Origin: a virus
Lineage: Duplodnaviria > Heunggongvirae > Uroviricota > Caudoviricetes
Length of the DNA: 7,663 nt
Direction: 5' to 3' (one strand)
IMG/VR virus record: IMGVR_UViG_2778261534_000005
Part shown: piece by piece, positions 1,138 through 7,663 of the stretch
Layout: each line of letters opens with the position of its first letter
Numbering within the stretch: the stretch's first letter is position 1
Made by a program: the position numbers and the translations under genes
The notes under the pieces: generated by a model
The model's input: the letters and a program-made list of their open reading frames with translations, nothing else
Databases searched by the model: none
Told to the model about the DNA's origin: nothing

Positions 1138-1326
1138 TTAACGAGGGTCTGTATGGTTGTCTTCACGGCCTCTGTCCTTGAGGTCAAACGACCATTCACG
1201 ACCAAACAACCGAAACACGATAAACACCCTGACGATGAAATAGCGAAGTAGTAGGCCTGCAATCAGCCCAACACCTCCACCAGCCCATACATCAGGTGAC
1301 CCCAGTTCAGGAGGGAGATTTACCAT
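1138..1326 (-). CDS. Small membrane protein, 62 aa, one predicted transmembrane helix; function unknown
   Basis: ORF-track product MVNLPPELGSPDVWAGGGVGLIAGLLLRYFIVRVFIVFRLFG... has a hydrophobic core followed by a charged tail. GAAGG Shine-Dalgarno about 8 nt upstream of the ATG on the minus strand; extended -10 promoter ~110 nt upstream; hairpin after the stop. Local GC is higher than in the flanking noncoding DNA. Confidence 0.4.
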   Translation of the reverse strand: MVNLPPELGSPDVWAGGGVGLIAGLLLRYFIVRVFIVFRLFGREWSFDLKDRGREDNHTDPR

Positions 1327-1440: not shown

Positions 1441-1470
1441 ATTATACCATAAATGTTAATAAATTGTTAA
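1441..1470 (-). promoter_or_regulatory. Leftward sigma70-type promoter with an extended -10 (TGnTATAAT)
   Basis: The minus strand reads TTAACA (plus 1470..1465), an 18-nt spacer, then TGGTATAAT (plus 1449..1441). The -10 hexamer is a perfect TATAAT with the TG extension. Confidence 0.5.
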
Positions 1471-1477
1471 AAAATAC

Positions 1478-1506
1478 TTGACATTAGTCTTTGAAACTGC
1501 TAGTAT
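1478..1506 (+). promoter_or_regulatory. Rightward sigma70-type promoter for the operon starting at 1559
   Basis: TTGACA at 1478..1483, 17-nt spacer, TAGTAT at 1501..1506, with an AT-rich tract upstream. It lies back-to-back with the leftward promoter; the two -35 elements are about 8 bp apart. Confidence 0.5.
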
Positions 1507-1558
1507 TGTATATATAGTTAACAGGAAATTAACAAACACTAAGAGGGTCAGAATATGA

Positions 1559-2113
1559 ATGAGAGACGCAGAATTTAGAGCGATGCTTCAGGCATCAAAA
1601 GAACGCAACAGACACAACGGTTACAGCTACACAAACAACCCCACCAGCTACGAAGTCCCAGCCTTTACCAAATCCGAACGTAAAAACATTGAAGCGGTCA
1701 TTCGTAGCATTACGCCACGAGACAGATTTATGCCAACTAGAAAGAGCACCCAGAACAGCATCAAAAATTATCTGGCTAGTTTTGACAGCTACGAGCAACT
1801 ACCAAGCAAGCTTGATGATATTTTCATTGGATTCTGTAGAGGTGAAGGTCACCCAAAATACAACAGAAAGCTATTTTATATTCTAAAGAATCTTGACGAA
1901 ATTAACACATGCAGCGTGACAAATCATCTTCAAAGACAATCAACCAGACTTAGCTACGAATTACCAACCGATGCCTATTGTGCATTGCTTGCTGTAATGT
2001 GTGCAAAGCTAATTGGTGTTGTTGAGCATCATGTTGCCGTTGGAAATATTGAGCCAATGGAAAACGAGCAACCAGATTTCGAGTTTGACCCGTATATTTT
2101 GGAGGAATTTTAA
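1559..2113 (+). CDS. Hypothetical protein, 184 aa, basic N-terminus and acidic C-terminus
   Basis: Long ORF directly downstream of the promoter; AAGAGGG ribosome-binding site at 1542..1548. First gene of a tightly packed chain. No family recognised by eye. Confidence 0.7.
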   Translation: MRDAEFRAMLQASKERNRHNGYSYTNNPTSYEVPAFTKSERKNIEAVIRSITPRDRFMPTRKSTQNSIKNYLASFDSYEQLPSKLDDIFIGFCRGEGHPKYNRKLFYILKNLDEINTCSVTNHLQRQSTRLSYELPTDAYCALLAVMCAKLIGVVEHHVAVGNIEPMENEQPDFEFDPYILEEF

Positions 2114-2116
2114 ATA

Positions 2117-2395
2117 ATGAATAAACACACATTAACCCGTATTTCAGAGGAAGCTTTTAACGAGCTTACCAGAATTAAACGAGCTACTAACTTGCCTCAT
2201 CAAACTGTTATGCAACTTGCAATCGCTAAAGAAGTCACTGAGTCGGATTTACTTAAATATCCAGTCTCTAAAGGTCGTAAACACATCCGAATTACTACGG
2301 ACGCTTTAGATACTTTGAAGGCACTTAACAGCTTTAAAATTGATATTGCCCGACTATTGAGCATCAAGATTCACAAATTATCTCAGGAGGTCTGA
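2117..2395 (+). CDS. Hypothetical small protein, 92 aa; possible ribbon-helix-helix-like DNA-binding protein
   Basis: GGAGG at 2101..2105; starts 3 nt after the upstream stop. The N-terminus (TLTRISEEAFNELTRIKRATNLPHQTVMQLAIAKEV) has a strand-helix-helix pattern reminiscent of CopG/Arc-type folds. The fold assignment is inference only. Confidence 0.65.
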   Translation: MNKHTLTRISEEAFNELTRIKRATNLPHQTVMQLAIAKEVTESDLLKYPVSKGRKHIRITTDALDTLKALNSFKIDIARLLSIKIHKLSQEV

Positions 2396-2397
2396 TT

Positions 2398-2670
2398 ATG
2401 AAGCAATGGCGAGATGATATTAAACGGTTCTTTGCAACTTACTTCATGATTAATTACGAAACAGGAATGCTTGAATGGATTGATGGCGGAGAGGTTAAGA
2501 CAAGAGATGATGCTTACGGTAATCCAATGATTCGTTATGGCACTCGTGATTATTATGTGAAGTATGTCATCTGGTTTTTGCATCATGAAGTTCAGGCAAC
2601 TAAAAAGATTATCTTCAGGGATGGTAATAAAAGAAATTGCCACCCAAACAATTTGCTACAGGAGGTTTAA
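2398..2670 (+). CDS. HNH_3-like (homing-endonuclease-related) small protein, 90 aa; canonical catalytic His not evident
   Basis: AGGAGG at 2385..2390 with 7-nt spacing; starts 2 nt after the upstream stop. The C-terminal IIFRDGNKRNCHPNNL (nt 2608..2655) matches the DGNK-N...NL core of HNH_3-type endonucleases, but Phe-Arg sits where His-Ile is usual. Confidence 0.7.
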   Translation: MKQWRDDIKRFFATYFMINYETGMLEWIDGGEVKTRDDAYGNPMIRYGTRDYYVKYVIWFLHHEVQATKKIIFRDGNKRNCHPNNLLQEV

Positions 2671-3056
2671 TGTATGACTTTTATAAACATCGTGACCATT
2701 TGGTAAGATTTGACGGTAAAGTCTGGAAAGACGTAACACAAACCAATAAGCCCAAGTTTACCCACCAGCAATTAGCCTCAAGATTTGATATCTGGACTGA
2801 AGCACAAAAAGATAATGGTGATTTCGAGTTTATCAGGGGTTTTGATTATGCTTACGAAGACGACCTTAAAGACGCCATTAAATTAATTGAGAATTTCAAC
2901 TCTATTAAAAGTGGTGACAAGCACAAAGCCAATGGTAACAGATACGATAAAGATTTAATCATTGATGCAATCACCAAAGGACAATCACAAAGTTATATTT
3001 CTGAGAAATACGGTTTATCACGCAGTCAATACTACAAGATTAAAGCGTCTGTGTAA
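2670..3056 (+). CDS. Putative DNA-binding protein, 128 aa, with a C-terminal recombinase/invertase-type helix-turn-helix
   Basis: The ATG at 2670 overlaps the upstream TAA (TAATG); GGAGG at 2661..2665. The ORF track starts this frame at a TTG at 2637, but the ATG with its Shine-Dalgarno is the more likely start. The C-terminal SQSYISEKYGLSRSQYYKIK resembles HTH_7/Hin-type helix-turn-helix motifs. Confidence 0.7.
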   Translation: MYDFYKHRDHLVRFDGKVWKDVTQTNKPKFTHQQLASRFDIWTEAQKDNGDFEFIRGFDYAYEDDLKDAIKLIENFNSIKSGDKHKANGNRYDKDLIIDAITKGQSQSYISEKYGLSRSQYYKIKASV

Positions 3057-3068
3057 GCCTGTGAGAAT

Positions 3069-3115
3069 GAGTGAGACTCAAAGATGAGCTACCCTATTAC
3101 TAAGGTGTCTCACTC
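3069..3115. promoter_or_regulatory. Perfect 9-bp inverted repeat GAGTGAGAC-N29-GTCTCACTC in an intergenic region
   Basis: Arms at 3069..3077 and 3107..3115 are exact reverse complements. A second small hairpin follows (gtaacc/ggttac, 3121..3137). No T-tract follows, so it is not a classical intrinsic terminator. Confidence 0.45.
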
Positions 3116-3193
3116 CCTCTGTAACCCGCATGGTTACTGGCCTCAGAATGGCTATTTTGGCAGATTTAAGATGTGTTTTAGAGGAATTTAAAA

Positions 3194-3517
3194 ATGAACA
3201 ATCACCCAATGCAAATTTTCGTTGATAACGACACCGCCATGATGATTCAGGCTTTCAGTGATGTAGGTGTTGGCATTGACTTTGATAAGTTGTTAGAGTT
3301 AATGGCTGCTAATGCAGAAAACATCTCTGACTTTATTCAGTCGGTGGAGTTTAACGAGCCTCGAATGATGCTACCAATTTCAGACAGCAACATGAAAAGA
3401 TTGGTTATCGAGCAAACGAACAAATACAGCGTTAGCCCTGAAAGATATCTCAAGGCAGCTATAGCAATTTTGTACGCTGACAATATTTTGGTGACGGATT
3501 CCGTGAGGGTTCACTAA
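3194..3517 (+). CDS. Hypothetical protein, 107 aa
   Basis: AGAGGA ribosome-binding site at 3179..3184, 9 nt before the ATG. No family recognised. Confidence 0.65.
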   Translation: MNNHPMQIFVDNDTAMMIQAFSDVGVGIDFDKLLELMAANAENISDFIQSVEFNEPRMMLPISDSNMKRLVIEQTNKYSVSPERYLKAAIAILYADNILVTDSVRVH

Positions 3518-3594
3518 TGACGTTAATTGTATTATGGACGCTGTTAGGCTTATTTGTTGGCTGCATTATTAACAATGCGGTAAATAAGAATTGA
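3517..3594 (+). CDS. Small hydrophobic peptide, 25 aa (MTLIVLWTLLGLFVGCIINNAVNKN), possible single-pass membrane peptide
   Basis: Absent from the ORF track (too short). The ATG at 3517 overlaps the upstream TAA (TAATG); GAGGG at 3505..3509 with 7-nt spacing. Hydrophobic core followed by a polar basic tail. Confidence 0.4.
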   Translation: MTLIVLWTLLGLFVGCIINNAVNKN

Positions 3595-3618
3595 TGTTAC
3601 CAATCTGTTAAAAAGCTG

Positions 3619-3647
3619 TTGACAAATAACCTTAAGCATGACATAAT
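3619..3647 (+). promoter_or_regulatory. Sigma70-type promoter (TTGACA-17-CATAAT)
   Basis: Perfect -35 TTGACA at 3619..3624, 17-nt spacer, CATAAT at 3642..3647. Confidence 0.5.
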
Positions 3648-3656
3648 TTTAATTAT

Positions 3657-3684
3657 AGAGAGAATTGCTCTCTTATTTTTTTTT
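3657..3684 (+). terminator. Hairpin plus T-tract (intrinsic-terminator-like) just downstream of the promoter
   Basis: agagag (3657..3662) pairs with ctctct (3668..3673), loop aattg, followed by tattttttttt (3674..3684). Confidence 0.5.
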
Positions 3685-3817
3685 CAACAATTCCATCTAC
3701 ATCTAGGGATAGTTATTCTGAAAGGTGCAATGCTTTTCGCTACATGGCCTCTTATATAACCTGAGAGGTCATCTCGAAAAGTCTTTGTTCATTCATTATT
3801 GAATCCTTTACAGCTTT

Positions 3818-3856
3818 GCCCTAACTCATGATTAGGGCGTTTCTTTAAGAGTTTTT
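3818..3856 (+). terminator. Hairpin plus U-rich tail (terminator-like)
   Basis: gccctaa (3818..3824) pairs with ttagggc (3832..3838), 7-nt loop, then gtttctttaagagttttt. Confidence 0.4.
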
Positions 3857-3915
3857 AAACAGAACTTTTAAAGAAAGTTTTTCCTGAAACTTCGTTAACG
3901 TTAAAGCAAACCTTC

Positions 3916-3960
3916 AAAGCCCTTCACAGATGAGGATGAACCTATGTTTAGGGCTTTTTT
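3916..3960 (+). terminator. Hairpin with a large loop plus T-tract (terminator-like)
   Basis: aaagccct (3916..3923) pairs with agggcttt (3950..3957) around a 26-nt loop; the T run extends to 3960. Confidence 0.35.
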
Positions 3961-4070
3961 CAGCTTTTAAAAAGCATACTTGGCAAACGCCTTTTAAGCC
4001 TCTTCTAAGTTCGAGGATGTCAGGTGTGCTTTTTAAAAACTGAATATTACTTAGAAGAGGAAATGAAATA

Positions 4071-4781
4071 ATGGCAAATGACATTTATATTAGTGGAAGA
4101 AAAATTGATAGCTTCGGTGACTGGTCGCCACAGACTGAACATCCAGCTATCGCTATTCAGCGCAAAGAGCACGATGAAAGAATTGCACTTGAGCAAGAGT
4201 TAAAGATGACACCAAAGGAAATTACCTTTGTGTCTCCTGAGCCTCAAGAGATGCCTGATGTATGCAAAACTGAATCATTACTTGAGCTTGAGCGTGAATA
4301 TTACCCACTACTGAAAGCACAAAGAATTAAACTTGATATTGCTTACGATGCGGTTAAGAACTTCGAAGAAACCTCGAAACCTTCAGAATATGATATTGCT
4401 TACGAGATTAAGTCAAACCCATTTATCTATTATGAAGGAAACTTTAATGATGGTTTTGGTACAGCGATTGAAGACGTTCCTAAAGTTCTTCAAAGTATCC
4501 CTGAAGGGTTCCGGTTAATTGATGTCAGACAAGCATTAAGGGGTTCTGGTCAATTTATCCTGATGAGTGATAAGACAGATGAAGAGATTCTTCAGTTAGC
4601 TGAAGCTAATTTGACTAAGCATTATTCCGGTAAACTGGATAAGTTAAAGCAAAAGCTTAGAAAAGAACTTGATAGCATGAAAGAACTTGTTAGTGAATAT
4701 GAATCACAGAAGAAGATTGCTATGCAGGCTGATATTGAGCAGTTAGTGAAGATTTCAACGAAGTACGCAAAGGTGCTTTAA
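4071..4781 (+). CDS. Hypothetical acidic protein, 236 aa; possible tail assembly chaperone by position (inference)
   Basis: GAGG at 4057..4060 about 10 nt before the ATG. First gene after the long noncoding region and two genes upstream of the tape measure gene. Rich in Asp/Glu with a helical, charged C-terminus. Confidence 0.7.
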   Translation: MANDIYISGRKIDSFGDWSPQTEHPAIAIQRKEHDERIALEQELKMTPKEITFVSPEPQEMPDVCKTESLLELEREYYPLLKAQRIKLDIAYDAVKNFEETSKPSEYDIAYEIKSNPFIYYEGNFNDGFGTAIEDVPKVLQSIPEGFRLIDVRQALRGSGQFILMSDKTDEEILQLAEANLTKHYSGKLDKLKQKLRKELDSMKELVSEYESQKKIAMQADIEQLVKISTKYAKVL

Positions 4782-5099: not shown

Positions 5100-7277
5100 A
5101 TGAGCAAATTCACAGTTGATAGTTTTATCGTTGAGCTAGGCTTCAGCGAGAACGTTATTAAGGGCTTGCAAAGAGTTGAAAAGGCAGCTTTGCAGTCAGC
5201 ACAAAGAATTGAAAAGAACCTAAATAAAGGTTTCAGGATTAATACAAAGCAGCTTGATAGTAATTTAACGACTTCTTTAGGGCAACTTGAAAGGAAGTTT
5301 AATAAGACCTTTGACAAGATTGAACAGAGAGCAAGAAACACAAAAGTTTTCCGTTTCACAAGTCAGGTTAATGACGCTATTAATCCTCCAAAACAACCAA
5401 GACAGCCACGAATTAGCGGAAACAGAGCAATCACAGCAGCTTATTCAGCGAATATGAGCAAGCTAAAAGGCTTTGACCCTATTTTGCAGAAATACATCAA
5501 ATCTCAGTTTTACGGGCTATCTGCTAAAGCTGGGTCAATGGATAATTCAAAATTCAATGAGAAGCTGGCTCAGTTAAACACTTCAGTCAGAGAAGCAATT
5601 GCTAAAGCCAGAGGTCATACATCCACCAGCATTAACAATACAAGCGACGCATTTAATAATCTTGCAAGCAATGCGATTAAATTATCTGGTGCATTTTACT
5701 CTGTGATGGGTGCTCTTAACGCTTACAAGGCCATTATGAATGCAGGTCTTAAACGAGATTCCGCACAGAGAGCCGCTAAGTTTGTACTTGGTGATAAAGC
5801 ATCTGAAGCTGAAACATTTATCAGGGGACTGGCTGACAAGACAGGTCTTAATATCTCTGAAGGGCTATCAAGCTACGCTAAGTTTGCAGCAGGTGCTCAG
5901 GGTTCTATGTCACAGGAACAGACACAGGAGCTATTTGGTAATGCAACGGCTATGAGTCGCTTAATGGGGCTTTCTAACGACGAGCTAAACGGCATTCTGA
6001 AAGCATTTGAGCAGATGGCGAGCAAGGGCAAGATTCAAGCTGAAGAGCTTCGTGGGCAGTTAGGTGACCGTATGGCTGGTGCATTTAAGCTATTCGCTGA
6101 AGCATTGGGTATGACTGCTACAGAGCTTGATAAAGCGATGAAAGACGGGAAGATTTTAAGTAGTGATACTCTCCCTAAAGTCGCTAAACAGATGGGCTTG
6201 ATGATTGATAAAGCGGGTGGTTGGGCTGAAGTCGCTAAGAGCACTCAGACAGCTTTAGGTAAGTTAGCAAACAACTGGGATGACACGATGGTGAAAATCT
6301 TCTCAGGTTCACAGGATGAGCTAAATGGCTTCTTATCCAGCCTGAGTAACCTGCTTAGTGAAATGGGTATGAGTTCTTCTATCGCTGGTGATGCTATCGG
6401 TGGACTTATCGACATGCTTAAAGCTGGTGTAGATGATATCCGTATCTTTAACAATCACATTGAAGGCTGGATTTTACAGACTAAGAAGTTCTATTACAGC
6501 CTTGATGACACTAAACGAAAACTACTTGATGAAGTCGGTGATGGTTTTATCAATTTTGTCAAAGGTCTTGCTATAGCGTTATCTGCAAAGACGCTATTCA
6601 GTGCTACTACAGGGGTTATGAACCTGACAAGAGCAATCACAACGTTAGGTACAAGAGCTAATCAGGTGGCTGGTCAGGTAGCTACTGGTAAAGGTGGTGG
6701 AAAACTGAAAGGTGTAGCTGGTGGTGTAGGTAGTGCTCTTGCAATTGGTTATGCTGATGACGGTTATGAAACAGCGTTAGCATTAGCTTCAATGATTCCA
6801 CAAATCAGAGGTGTCACTCTTGGTTTATATGCATTGAAGAAAGCACTGGATTTTATGAATCAGGAAGTAGTCAAAAACGCTAATATGCATCCATCTGGGG
6901 TAGGTGTGGGTAGTGACTTTAATCCTGTGTATTCTGGTGACCCTAATAAACCGAATGTGATTAACGAAGGATGGAGTAGAATTTTTAGTTCAATGGGTGA
7001 ATTGTTTAACAATGCCACAATGAATATTGCAAGATTCAATCATCCAGAATTGATTACCATGAAACAAGATGCATCATTAACGAGCACTGACATCCAAAAT
7101 CTAAGAGATGAAATTAGTGCTTTGAGTAAACGTATTCAGGAGCCAGTGAAAGTTTCACTTGGTGGTGAAGTTGCCATTAAACCAGATGAAACCAGCTTTA
7201 TGACCTTTAGCAGTAATATCTACGACCAATATGCAGAAGCTACGTTATTAAGTTCATCATTCCCAGAAGATGATTGA
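5100..7277 (+). CDS. Phage tail tape measure protein, 725 aa
   Basis: AAGAGGTGA ribosome-binding site 8 nt upstream. Residues ~291..366 (nt ~5970..6197; LSNDELNGILKAFEQMASKGKIQAEELRGQLGDRMAGAFKLFAEALGMTATELDKAMKDGKILSSDTLPKVAKQMG) match the conserved tape measure domain pattern. Long Ala/Gly/Leu-rich helical-looking protein with a Gly-rich segment at residues ~526..549. Confidence 0.85.
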   Translation: MSKFTVDSFIVELGFSENVIKGLQRVEKAALQSAQRIEKNLNKGFRINTKQLDSNLTTSLGQLERKFNKTFDKIEQRARNTKVFRFTSQVNDAINPPKQPRQPRISGNRAITAAYSANMSKLKGFDPILQKYIKSQFYGLSAKAGSMDNSKFNEKLAQLNTSVREAIAKARGHTSTSINNTSDAFNNLASNAIKLSGAFYSVMGALNAYKAIMNAGLKRDSAQRAAKFVLGDKASEAETFIRGLADKTGLNISEGLSSYAKFAAGAQGSMSQEQTQELFGNATAMSRLMGLSNDELNGILKAFEQMASKGKIQAEELRGQLGDRMAGAFKLFAEALGMTATELDKAMKDGKILSSDTLPKVAKQMGLMIDKAGGWAEVAKSTQTALGKLANNWDDTMVKIFSGSQDELNGFLSSLSNLLSEMGMSSSIAGDAIGGLIDMLKAGVDDIRIFNNHIEGWILQTKKFYYSLDDTKRKLLDEVGDGFINFVKGLAIALSAKTLFSATTGVMNLTRAITTLGTRANQVAGQVATGKGGGKLKGVAGGVGSALAIGYADDGYETALALASMIPQIRGVTLGLYALKKALDFMNQEVVKNANMHPSGVGVGSDFNPVYSGDPNKPNVINEGWSRIFSSMGELFNNATMNIARFNHPELITMKQDASLTSTDIQNLRDEISALSKRIQEPVKVSLGGEVAIKPDETSFMTFSSNIYDQYAEATLLSSSFPEDD

Positions 7278-7289
7278 TTTAACGGTGTT

Positions 7290-7342
7290 CTACGTGAATA
7301 AAGCAAAGTTAATACCCACACCAAAAATTATTTTTCACGTAG
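7290..7342. promoter_or_regulatory. 9-bp inverted repeat CTACGTGAA-N35-TTCACGTAG downstream of the tape measure gene
   Basis: Arms at 7290..7298 and 7334..7342 are exact reverse complements. No T-tract follows the right arm. Confidence 0.4.
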
Positions 7343-7373
7343 CTCACGCTTAACAGAGAAAATACTTATATAT

Positions 7374-7663
<290 letters not shown>

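Follow-up and report, generated by a model that had tools for sequence, protein, structure and literature searches.

A constrained six-gene cassette in Escherichia coli chromosomal elements: a candidate early operon of a Felix-O1-type phage satellite

We analysed a DNA stretch of 7,663 nucleotides (IMG/VR virus record IMGVR_UViG_2778261534_000005; hereafter, the window) in which six small genes, here named P1 to P6, follow one another from position 1559 to position 3594. Judging from sequence comparisons, we lean, by somewhat more than even chances, towards reading these genes as the early operon of an integrated satellite of about 11.5 kb that belongs to Felix-O1-like myophages (Ounavirinae). 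The anatomy is that of a satellite because the element has its own integrase, a defined insertion site, a partial set of virion genes, and genes and sites that link it to a helper phage. No description of satellites of Felixounavirus or Ounavirinae was found in the literature searched. The element appears to represent an undescribed satellite family for Felix-O1-type phages, and it differs in several features from the E. coli elements of PMC10055350.

If this reading is true, such a satellite resides in about one sequenced E. coli in ten, and it also occurs in many Shigella sonnei and in some Citrobacter and Salmonella. Felix-O1-type phages are used in Salmonella typing, in biocontrol, and in therapy cocktails; the element could reduce the efficacy of these phages or spread on therapeutic ones. 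To our knowledge, satellites of strictly virulent phages are understood in detail only for the Vibrio PLE and ICP1. The operon would hold the control logic of the element; with its three operators, two promoters, and six proteins, it is small enough to test how a satellite detects and exploits a virulent helper. The box sequence common to the satellite promoters and the phage genome ends provides a concrete experimental handle, as does the exchange of modules between sibling elements.

The six genes form an operon-like unit

The genes are listed below with the Shine-Dalgarno-like (SD-like) sequence in front of each. Unless stated otherwise, coordinates are from the list of open reading frames (ORFs).

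1559-2113, plus strand: P1, 184 amino acids (aa); SD-like AAGAGGG at 1541-1547
2117-2395, plus strand: P2, 92 aa; SD-like GGAGG at 2101-2105
2398-2670, plus strand: P3, 90 aa; SD-like AGGAGG at 2383-2388
2670-3056, plus strand: P4, 128 aa counted from the ATG at 2670; SD-like AGGAGG at 2660-2665
3194-3517, plus strand: P5, 107 aa; SD-like AGAGGA at 3180-3185
3517-3594, plus strand: P6, 25 aa, start overlapping the P5 stop codon; SD-like GAGGG at 3505-3509

Gaps of 3 nt (2114-2116) and 2 nt (2396-2397) separate P1 from P2 and P2 from P3, respectively. P3 and P4 overlap in a TAATG (2668-2672), as do P5 and P6 (3515-3519), and a gap of 137 nt (3057-3193) lies between P4 and P5. As read from the sequence, all six ATGs are preceded by the SD-like sequence at a distance of 4-11 nt. 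For P4, a TTG at 2637 is an alternative start (2637-3056, 139 aa); the RefSeq annotation of relatives uses the ATG. Five of the six genes are annotated at the same positions in related RefSeq genomes. P6 is unannotated there, and its frame of 25 codons is unbroken in 10 loci.

Pooled over 5-10 homologous loci, the ratios of nonsynonymous to synonymous differences (pN/pS) were 0.45 for P1, 0.25 for P2, 0.06 for P3 (the most constrained of the six), 0.17 for P4, 0.30 for P5, and 0.27 for P6. All six genes are under purifying selection. These ORFs do not follow one another by chance; they form a genuine operon-like unit.

An earlier note, made from the sequence alone, had described six small genes of 25-184 aa on one strand with these coordinates and junctions, an inverted repeat at 3069-3115 within the gap of about 137 bp, and a promoter at 1478-1506. 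The ORF list and the sequence confirm the first of these, repeat analysis found the arms of the second, and a promoter scan recovered the third, which is conserved across 11 loci.

The cassette lies in a chromosomal element of E. coli

The window matches 545 of 5426 complete E. coli genomes (about 10%) at 662 places, none of which is on a plasmid; the cassette by itself matches 481 complete E. coli genomes. The earlier note had placed the cassette in phage DNA. This did not hold: the cassette had neither a blastn nor a tblastn match in 50,697 phage records, and it lies inside an E. coli chromosomal element. Relatives of P1 also occur in Shigella sonnei and Citrobacter, and relatives of P2 in Salmonella, Citrobacter, and E. 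albertii. Seventeen related loci were compared; L010, L011, and L013-L017 belong to a second element type, described below.

In the annotated loci the element, of which the window is the inner part, is about 11-11.6 kb long and has one compact architecture. It splits yecE (DUF72) or sits directly upstream of wrbA. From left to right it consists of a small serine recombinase gene, non-coding DNA that in some cases includes a Dam gene, the cassette, the genes for a 236-aa and a 67-aa protein, a tape-measure gene, a gene for a Dit-like protein, and, at the right end, a large serine recombinase gene (Resolvase, Recombinase, and Zn_ribbon_recom domains). None of the annotated loci contains capsid, terminase, portal, or lysis genes. 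We found no tRNA genes and no Rfam families, even at E <= 1.

The two structural genes that are left, together with the insertion sequence (IS) elements that interrupt some copies, could be taken to mean that the element is a decaying prophage remnant whose small ORFs are functionless leftovers. We consider this very improbable: purifying selection acts on each of the six ORFs, hundreds of genomes from several genera share the compact architecture, and the promoters and boxes described below are invariant. Moreover, none of the 50,697 phage records has these genes, so that no parent prophage is known.

The tail genes link the element to Felix-O1-type phages

In a megablast search of the window against phages, matches were obtained only for the far right end and for part of the tape-measure gene. 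Positions 7458-7663 are 97% identical to about 200 Felixounavirus records. The tape-measure protein (gene 5100-7277) is 30-33% identical to those of Felixounavirus, and the alignment with its best match, from Silverhawkium, covers the full length. The following gene starts at 7434 and encodes a Dit_like domain; over its first 200 nt it is 97% identical to the gene that comes after the tape-measure gene in the phage. The two genes have the same order as in Felixounavirus and are the sole structural genes of the element. The sharp mosaic boundary between them suggests a recent exchange with the helper.

The operon promoters are marked by phased double boxes

The sites found around the start and the end of the cassette are as follows.

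1441-1470, minus strand: divergent promoter-like site, TTAACA-18-TATAAT with TG, 11/12 match, for the gene of a 62-aa membrane protein
1454-1469, plus strand: upstream double box TGTTAATAAATTGTTA, TGTTA-N6-TGTTA, 11-nt phase
1478-1506, plus strand: cassette promoter, TTGACA-17-TAGTAT, extended -10 TG (promoter scan)
1519-1534, minus strand: downstream double box, TGTTAATTTCCTGTTA on the minus strand, inverted orientation
3595-3610, plus strand: third double box TGTTACCAATCTGTTA, offset by 13 nt from the -35 hexamer that follows, as is the upstream double box
3619-3647, plus strand: second promoter, TTGACA-17-CATAAT with TG, 11/12 match, heading the leader of the tail-gene operon
3657-3683, plus strand: hairpin and T-run (scan)

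The cassette promoter is of the sigma-70 type and near consensus. Across 11 loci, its -35 hexamer is invariant, and the -10 hexamer differs at 2 positions. Box 2 of the upstream double box begins 13 nt ahead of the -35 hexamer, and the downstream double box falls at about +6 to +21 when counted along the predicted transcript. The two thus bracket the cassette promoter as an inverted repeat (1454-1470 / 1518-1534). The bases of both double boxes are invariant in the 11 loci, whereas their spacers vary. In the upstream double box, box 2 doubles as the -35 hexamer of the divergent promoter (1465-1470).

At the second promoter, both hexamers are invariant in all 17 related loci, with few differences in the spacer. 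The third double box in front of it is identical in 16 of the 17, the other being L008, which has substitutions in box 1. The scan detected no terminator-like site between the cassette promoter and 3657. The hairpin and T-run at 3657-3683 are the probable terminator of the six-gene operon and the first attenuator of the leader. A hairpin with a T-rich run is kept at this place in most loci; its stem sequence and its spacing from the promoter differ.

The pattern TGTTA-N6-TGTTA occurs exactly three times in the window, against an expectation of 0.046, and none of 500 simulations reached three. Outside the elements, about 300 kb of flanking sequence contained one match. The single box TGTTAA is present in 18 copies, against 8.1 expected, a number reached in none of 200 shuffles. 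In the second element type, just upstream of the P2 homologue, there is a TTGACA-17-TAAGAT promoter whose spacer and -10 region contain the box. The unit controlled by the boxes therefore always contains P2, P5-P6, and, when present, P4.

The boxes recur in the terminal repeats of the phages

Direct terminal repeats have been reported for Felixounavirus genomes (PMC11737134). A segment of about 60 nt within positions 354-435 of the window is 79-87% identical to unannotated non-coding DNA in 60 records of Felix-like phages. In Citrobacter phage HP1 (Ounavirinae), a segment of the annotated 570-bp terminal repeat_region (1-570 of the record) is 83% identical to positions 363-419, and the match to 354-435 occurs twice in the HP1 record. 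Nearly all satellite loci contain more terminal-repeat-like pieces to the left of the window. The segment at 354-435 probably mimics a site of packaging or replication.

The boxes themselves are found in the same part of the phage genomes. In phage Alf5 (87.7 kb), 13 of 15 double boxes fall within 13,201-13,948, inside a 1.65-kb non-coding gap between convergent gene blocks, where they form arrays such as TTGTTAAGAAA x4. The deposited end of the HP1 genome begins with three TTAACA boxes in 11-nt phase. A further terminal-repeat element, ATGTTAATAGCTTGTTAAAAA, is identical to positions 1453-1473 of the window at 19 of 21 sites; its place in the phage is immediately behind the counterpart of positions 363-419.

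No strong sigma-70 promoters were found in the terminal-repeat region of the phages, so the boxes there are not simply parts of promoters. They have the appearance of an array of protein-binding sites that serves packaging or replication. As judged from these matches, the predicted promoters of the satellite carry the terminal-repeat boxes of the presumed helper.

Sibling elements exchange the front module of the cassette

Matches of E. coli genomes to the cassette break at about 2661 and about 3112 of the window. In the second element type, P1, P2, and P3 are exchanged for an initiator-like protein, an HNH-like protein, and a P2 homologue. The first of these (313-326 aa) matches the PHROG replication-initiation family phrog_270 (E 1.8e-7) and the O-like phrog_678, and belongs to the HTH_36 / lambda-O-like type and not to RepA_N. 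Its gene contains three tandem iterons of 23 nt (L010 7513-7581), each with internal dyad symmetry, ACCCAACCAAAAATTGGTTACCT; by its sequence, this arrangement in L010 is a textbook origin within a lambda-O-like initiator gene. The HNH-like protein has 96 aa and, like P3 of the window (see below), no His at the catalytic position. The P2 homologue follows after a gap of 320 nt and is 33% identical to P2.

The slot of P4 is also variable: some elements have P4, and others a 58%-identical variant, unrelated proteins of 66-71 aa, or no gene. P5 is present in 17 of 17 related loci. Among the first 11 related loci, tblastn matched P6 in 9 (it was not found in L003 and L008), and in the six further loci the aligned part, its 3' end, does not differ from the window. 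Only P1-type elements have the 1.4 kb that lie upstream of the cassette. Alleles of the 236-aa protein differ by about 40%.

The gap between P4 and P5 (3057-3193) is 98-100% identical among loci. It is constrained, because in these loci 4-23% of synonymous sites (pS 0.04-0.23) differ in the genes on either side. It contains an inverted repeat:

3064-3077 / 3107-3120: inverted repeat, arms 86% complementary, with a perfect 9-bp core at 3069-3077 / 3107-3115

The left part of the gap, up to about 3111 and including this repeat, travels with P4, and the mosaic breakpoint lies at about 3112. The repeat as a candidate binding site of P4 is a reasonable guess. We rejected it as a terminator or an unusually stable RNA; it has no T-run, and its fold has a z of -0.83.

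The products resemble few characterized proteins

All six products stayed below the curated cut-offs when scanned against Pfam, PHROG, NCBIfam, and PADLOC, and single-sequence and profile searches found no relatives in the PDB. In a tblastn search against the Alf5 genome alone, the cassette proteins gave nothing below E = 1; they were therefore not borrowed from the helper.

P1 has about 1069 close homologues, all labelled hypothetical. An exhaustive HMMER search returned 20 hits among 1.84 billion representatives, including three distant relatives, none of them annotated. By these searches, P1 is nearly an orphan family. Its distant relatives match phrog_23123, a family without an assigned function, weakly. 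Pfam, NCBIfam, and PHROG gave no homology of P1 to initiator families. The AlphaFold model (pLDDT 74.8) predicts an all-helical protein with a confident core at residues 60-165, and a BFVD structure search with P1 returned uncharacterised phage proteins only. The acidic tail at its C-terminus (PDFEFDPY..EEF) is invariant.

The P2 family comprises 160 proteins. By eye, P2 is a small protein of two repeats with a ribbon-helix-helix-like pattern. The residues invariant between the two P2 types (H4, T5, T7, R8 and I57, R58, I59) form two short stretches, N-terminal in each repeat.

P3 matches HNH_3 (PF13392) with E 7.6e-5, at a score of 22.7 that is below the gathering cut-off of 24.8, and PHROG HNH families were matched too. 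The window allele reads IIFRDGN where a sister allele (41% identical) reads IIHRNGN. We take the H-x-[DN]-G-[DN] stretch of the beta-beta-alpha-metal motif to set the register of the catalytic His, which places a Phe in the catalytic His column. P3 is thus, as its alignment indicates, an HNH_3-like protein without the catalytic His. It differs from HNH_3 endonucleases in this exchange of Phe for His, in being only 90 aa long, and in having no extra DNA-binding module.

P4 has a weak resolvase-type helix-turn-helix (HTH) at its C-terminus. P5 is acidic in its N-terminal half and helical in its C-terminal half; its 3345 close homologues are all labelled hypothetical. P6 is a single hydrophobic helix with a weak match to phrog_33956 (E 0.0086).

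No PADLOC defence model was matched, the single weak match being that of P2 to PDC-S26 (E 0.017). This bears on the idea that the locus is a defence island and not a mobile satellite, in which an abortive-infection or decoy system would use membrane toxins and decoy tail proteins, and the recombinases would merely mark a hotspot. Small serine recombinases have been reported as markers of defence loci (PMC13552941), the locus encodes two small membrane proteins (P6 and the 62-aa protein), and some variants carry a Dam methyltransferase gene. Against this stand the PADLOC result and features that serve mobilisation: the large serine integrase, the precise insertion, the initiator and iterons of the siblings, and the copies of the helper's terminal repeat. 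We regard a defence island as quite improbable.

Somewhat less remote, though in our view still unlikely, is that the cassette is mainly a toolkit against the helper or for host takeover, which would, for example, block helper replication or packaging through the boxes or disturb lysis timing through P6. Since the boxes are the repeat unit of the helper's terminal-repeat region, a cassette protein binding them would also bind helper DNA; the content of the P4 slot differs among elements, as in accessory hotspots; and P6 is a hydrophobic peptide of 25 aa. Several small anti-phage effectors are reported for PLE satellites (PMC9410903 and PMC7145576), which supports the same idea. However, no PADLOC model was matched, the siblings swap the P1-P3 module for a replication module, and purifying selection acts on P2, P5, and P6, which belong to the core and not to the variable cargo. 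Such a toolkit and a role in satellite regulation are not mutually exclusive.

The earlier note had described a likely early or accessory cassette whose products match no well-known enzyme by eye, had pointed out that such cassettes often have host-takeover, anti-defence, or regulatory functions, and had suggested a search for variable gene content among related phages; strong homology of all products to housekeeping phage proteins would have spoken against it. The Pfam, PHROG, NCBIfam, PADLOC, and PDB searches agree with it on the enzymes, such housekeeping homology was looked for and not found, and the mosaic breakpoints in the E. coli loci demonstrate the variable content. The packed, promoter-proximal genes without assigned function fit its proposal in part, but the PADLOC result, the initiator swap, and the shared boxes favor regulation and replication over host takeover or anti-defence.

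A possible switch shared with the helper

Returning to the satellite early operon, we suggest that the box region would work as a genetic switch. The best candidate for binding the boxes would be P2, the one small protein that both module types retain; in the second type it has its own promoter, with the box inside the core. A bolder reading, which we rate as rather unlikely, is that P2 or P5 reads the phased TGTTAA boxes and that this would flip the divergent promoters, open the leader, and seize or block the helper's packaging and replication site, with P1 and P3 as a new type of initiator pair in a satellite family undescribed so far. Were the reader a helper protein, the satellite would sense infection through it. 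A satellite protein that reads both sets of boxes would instead combine self-regulation with seizure of the helper site.

P1 may be a protein of the replication-initiator type, with P3 as its partner. We read the two as a replication module because of their position and not because of homology: the siblings have a lambda-O-like initiator and a His-less HNH-like protein in this place. The candidate cognate origin is a 95-nt tandem repeat at 869-1057, which is conserved in most relatives and restricted to P1-type elements. P4 would be an exchangeable accessory DNA-binding protein, for which the inverted repeat that travels with it is the candidate site. P5 and P6 would form a core pair acting after induction, P5 possibly in the control of read-through into the tail operon and P6 through an effect on the membrane or on lysis timing.

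Several points weigh against the operon reading and the assignments made within it. That one module replaces another in position does not prove that the two have equal function, and a search for iterons within the P1-type cassette found none. The box binder could be encoded by the helper or be a host protein. A DndE match of P2 is weak, stays below threshold, and is seen in 7 of 9 members, and the identification of P2 and P5 as ribbon-helix-helix proteins, whose pattern fits by eye, gained no support, hhalign against seven ribbon-helix-helix references giving 3% and 0.1%, respectively, with no match to a Pfam ribbon-helix-helix family. The structure model of P5 (pLDDT 49.6) was too poor to search with. 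Finally, the site at 3619-3647, if a real promoter, would put the hairpin within about 30 nt of transcript, which is an unusual geometry.

Comparison with known satellites and switches

Like PLE, the element forms a small island in the chromosome, encodes a large serine recombinase and many small unassigned ORFs, and has a virulent myophage as its presumed helper. The initiator module of PLE is exchangeable between variants (PMC10055350), and likewise in this element. PLE is larger (about 18 kb, against about 11.5 kb here), and no RepA_N initiator like that of PLE was found in the window-type element in Pfam, NCBIfam, and PHROG scans. The element also differs from PLE in carrying tape-measure and Dit-like genes and in the helper terminal-repeat boxes at its promoters. 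No Pfam, PHROG, or NCBIfam family ties the six products to characterised proteins.

The nearest precedent is a set of putative satellites, the E. coli chromosomal elements of PMC10055350, which have a tape-measure and a baseplate component but not most tail genes; some have a serine recombinase, and their initiators are modular. In addition, those elements have genes for major capsid and decoration proteins and for RepA_N initiators, and they are matched to other phage lineages. The element described here has no capsid genes, and its matches are to Felixounavirus and other Ounavirinae. Among the proteins of the window and its flanks, we found none of the hallmarks of phage-inducible chromosomal islands (PICIs; tyrosine integrase, alpA, pri-rep), of capsid-forming PICIs (cfPICIs; capsid set), or of phage P4 (psu, sid, delta, alpha).

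The box region resembles the transactivation and switch regions of temperate phages and satellites such as phages P2 and P4 in having an operator common to back-to-back promoters and an upstream site, near -46 to -57, that the early and the late promoter share. It differs from them in that no homologue of Ogr/Delta, Cox, or CI is present, and in that the box is a direct repeat in 11-nt phase copied from the terminal repeat of the helper. By analogy, the second promoter and its leader can be compared to lambda PR'-tR' and Q, where a near-consensus, invariant promoter is likewise followed by terminator hairpins ahead of structural genes.

The leader and the genes downstream

The 426-nt leader at 3650-4075 folds with -129.1 kcal/mol, compared to -89.7 +/- 5.6 kcal/mol for shuffled sequences (z -7.07). 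It has at least three sites with a hairpin followed by U residues, at 3657-3683, 3817-3845, and about 3918-3960, and an inverted repeat with 27-nt arms (3959-3985 / 4018-4044) just before the gene for the 236-aa protein. No Rfam family matched the leader at E <= 1. This layout resembles the control of late genes by antitermination or by a leader RNA in lambda and phage P4, and by the same analogy a product of the cassette may control read-through of the leader.

The 236-aa protein (4071-4781) is labelled 'transposase' by PGAP, yet it contains neither a transposase domain nor any match to Pfam or PHROG. Its C-terminal part appears coiled-coil-like by eye. Its length is near that of the external capsid-scaffold proteins of the P4 and PLE satellites; a resemblance to them is a guess. 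Between the tape-measure and Dit-like genes, the 156-nt gap is filled by two inverted repeats:

7279-7301 / 7331-7353: first inverted repeat before the Dit-like gene
7365-7385 / 7404-7424: second inverted repeat before the Dit-like gene

The region left of the cassette

Positions 1-1100 of the window contain no credible ORF and are 74-87% conserved, among P1-type elements only. The hexamer GTTAAG occurs 8 times there and 14 times in the whole window, where 5.2 are expected. In some elements, the Dam methyltransferase gene is inserted at about 592-623. The ORF of the 62-aa membrane protein (1138-1326, minus strand) is divergent from the cassette, has a pN/pS of 0.27, and is intact in 10 loci; it is annotated in some genomes only (WP_021532079), and a terminator-like site for it lies at 1123-1100. 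We discarded a 40-aa ORF at 1320-1442, which has stop codons in relatives and is not conserved.

The small serine recombinase at the left end of the element, outside the window, has about 180-190 aa with Resolvase and HTH domains. Its gene faces away from the cassette in L001 and L002 and towards it in L003 and L004, which suggests an invertible segment or a rearrangement of the left end.

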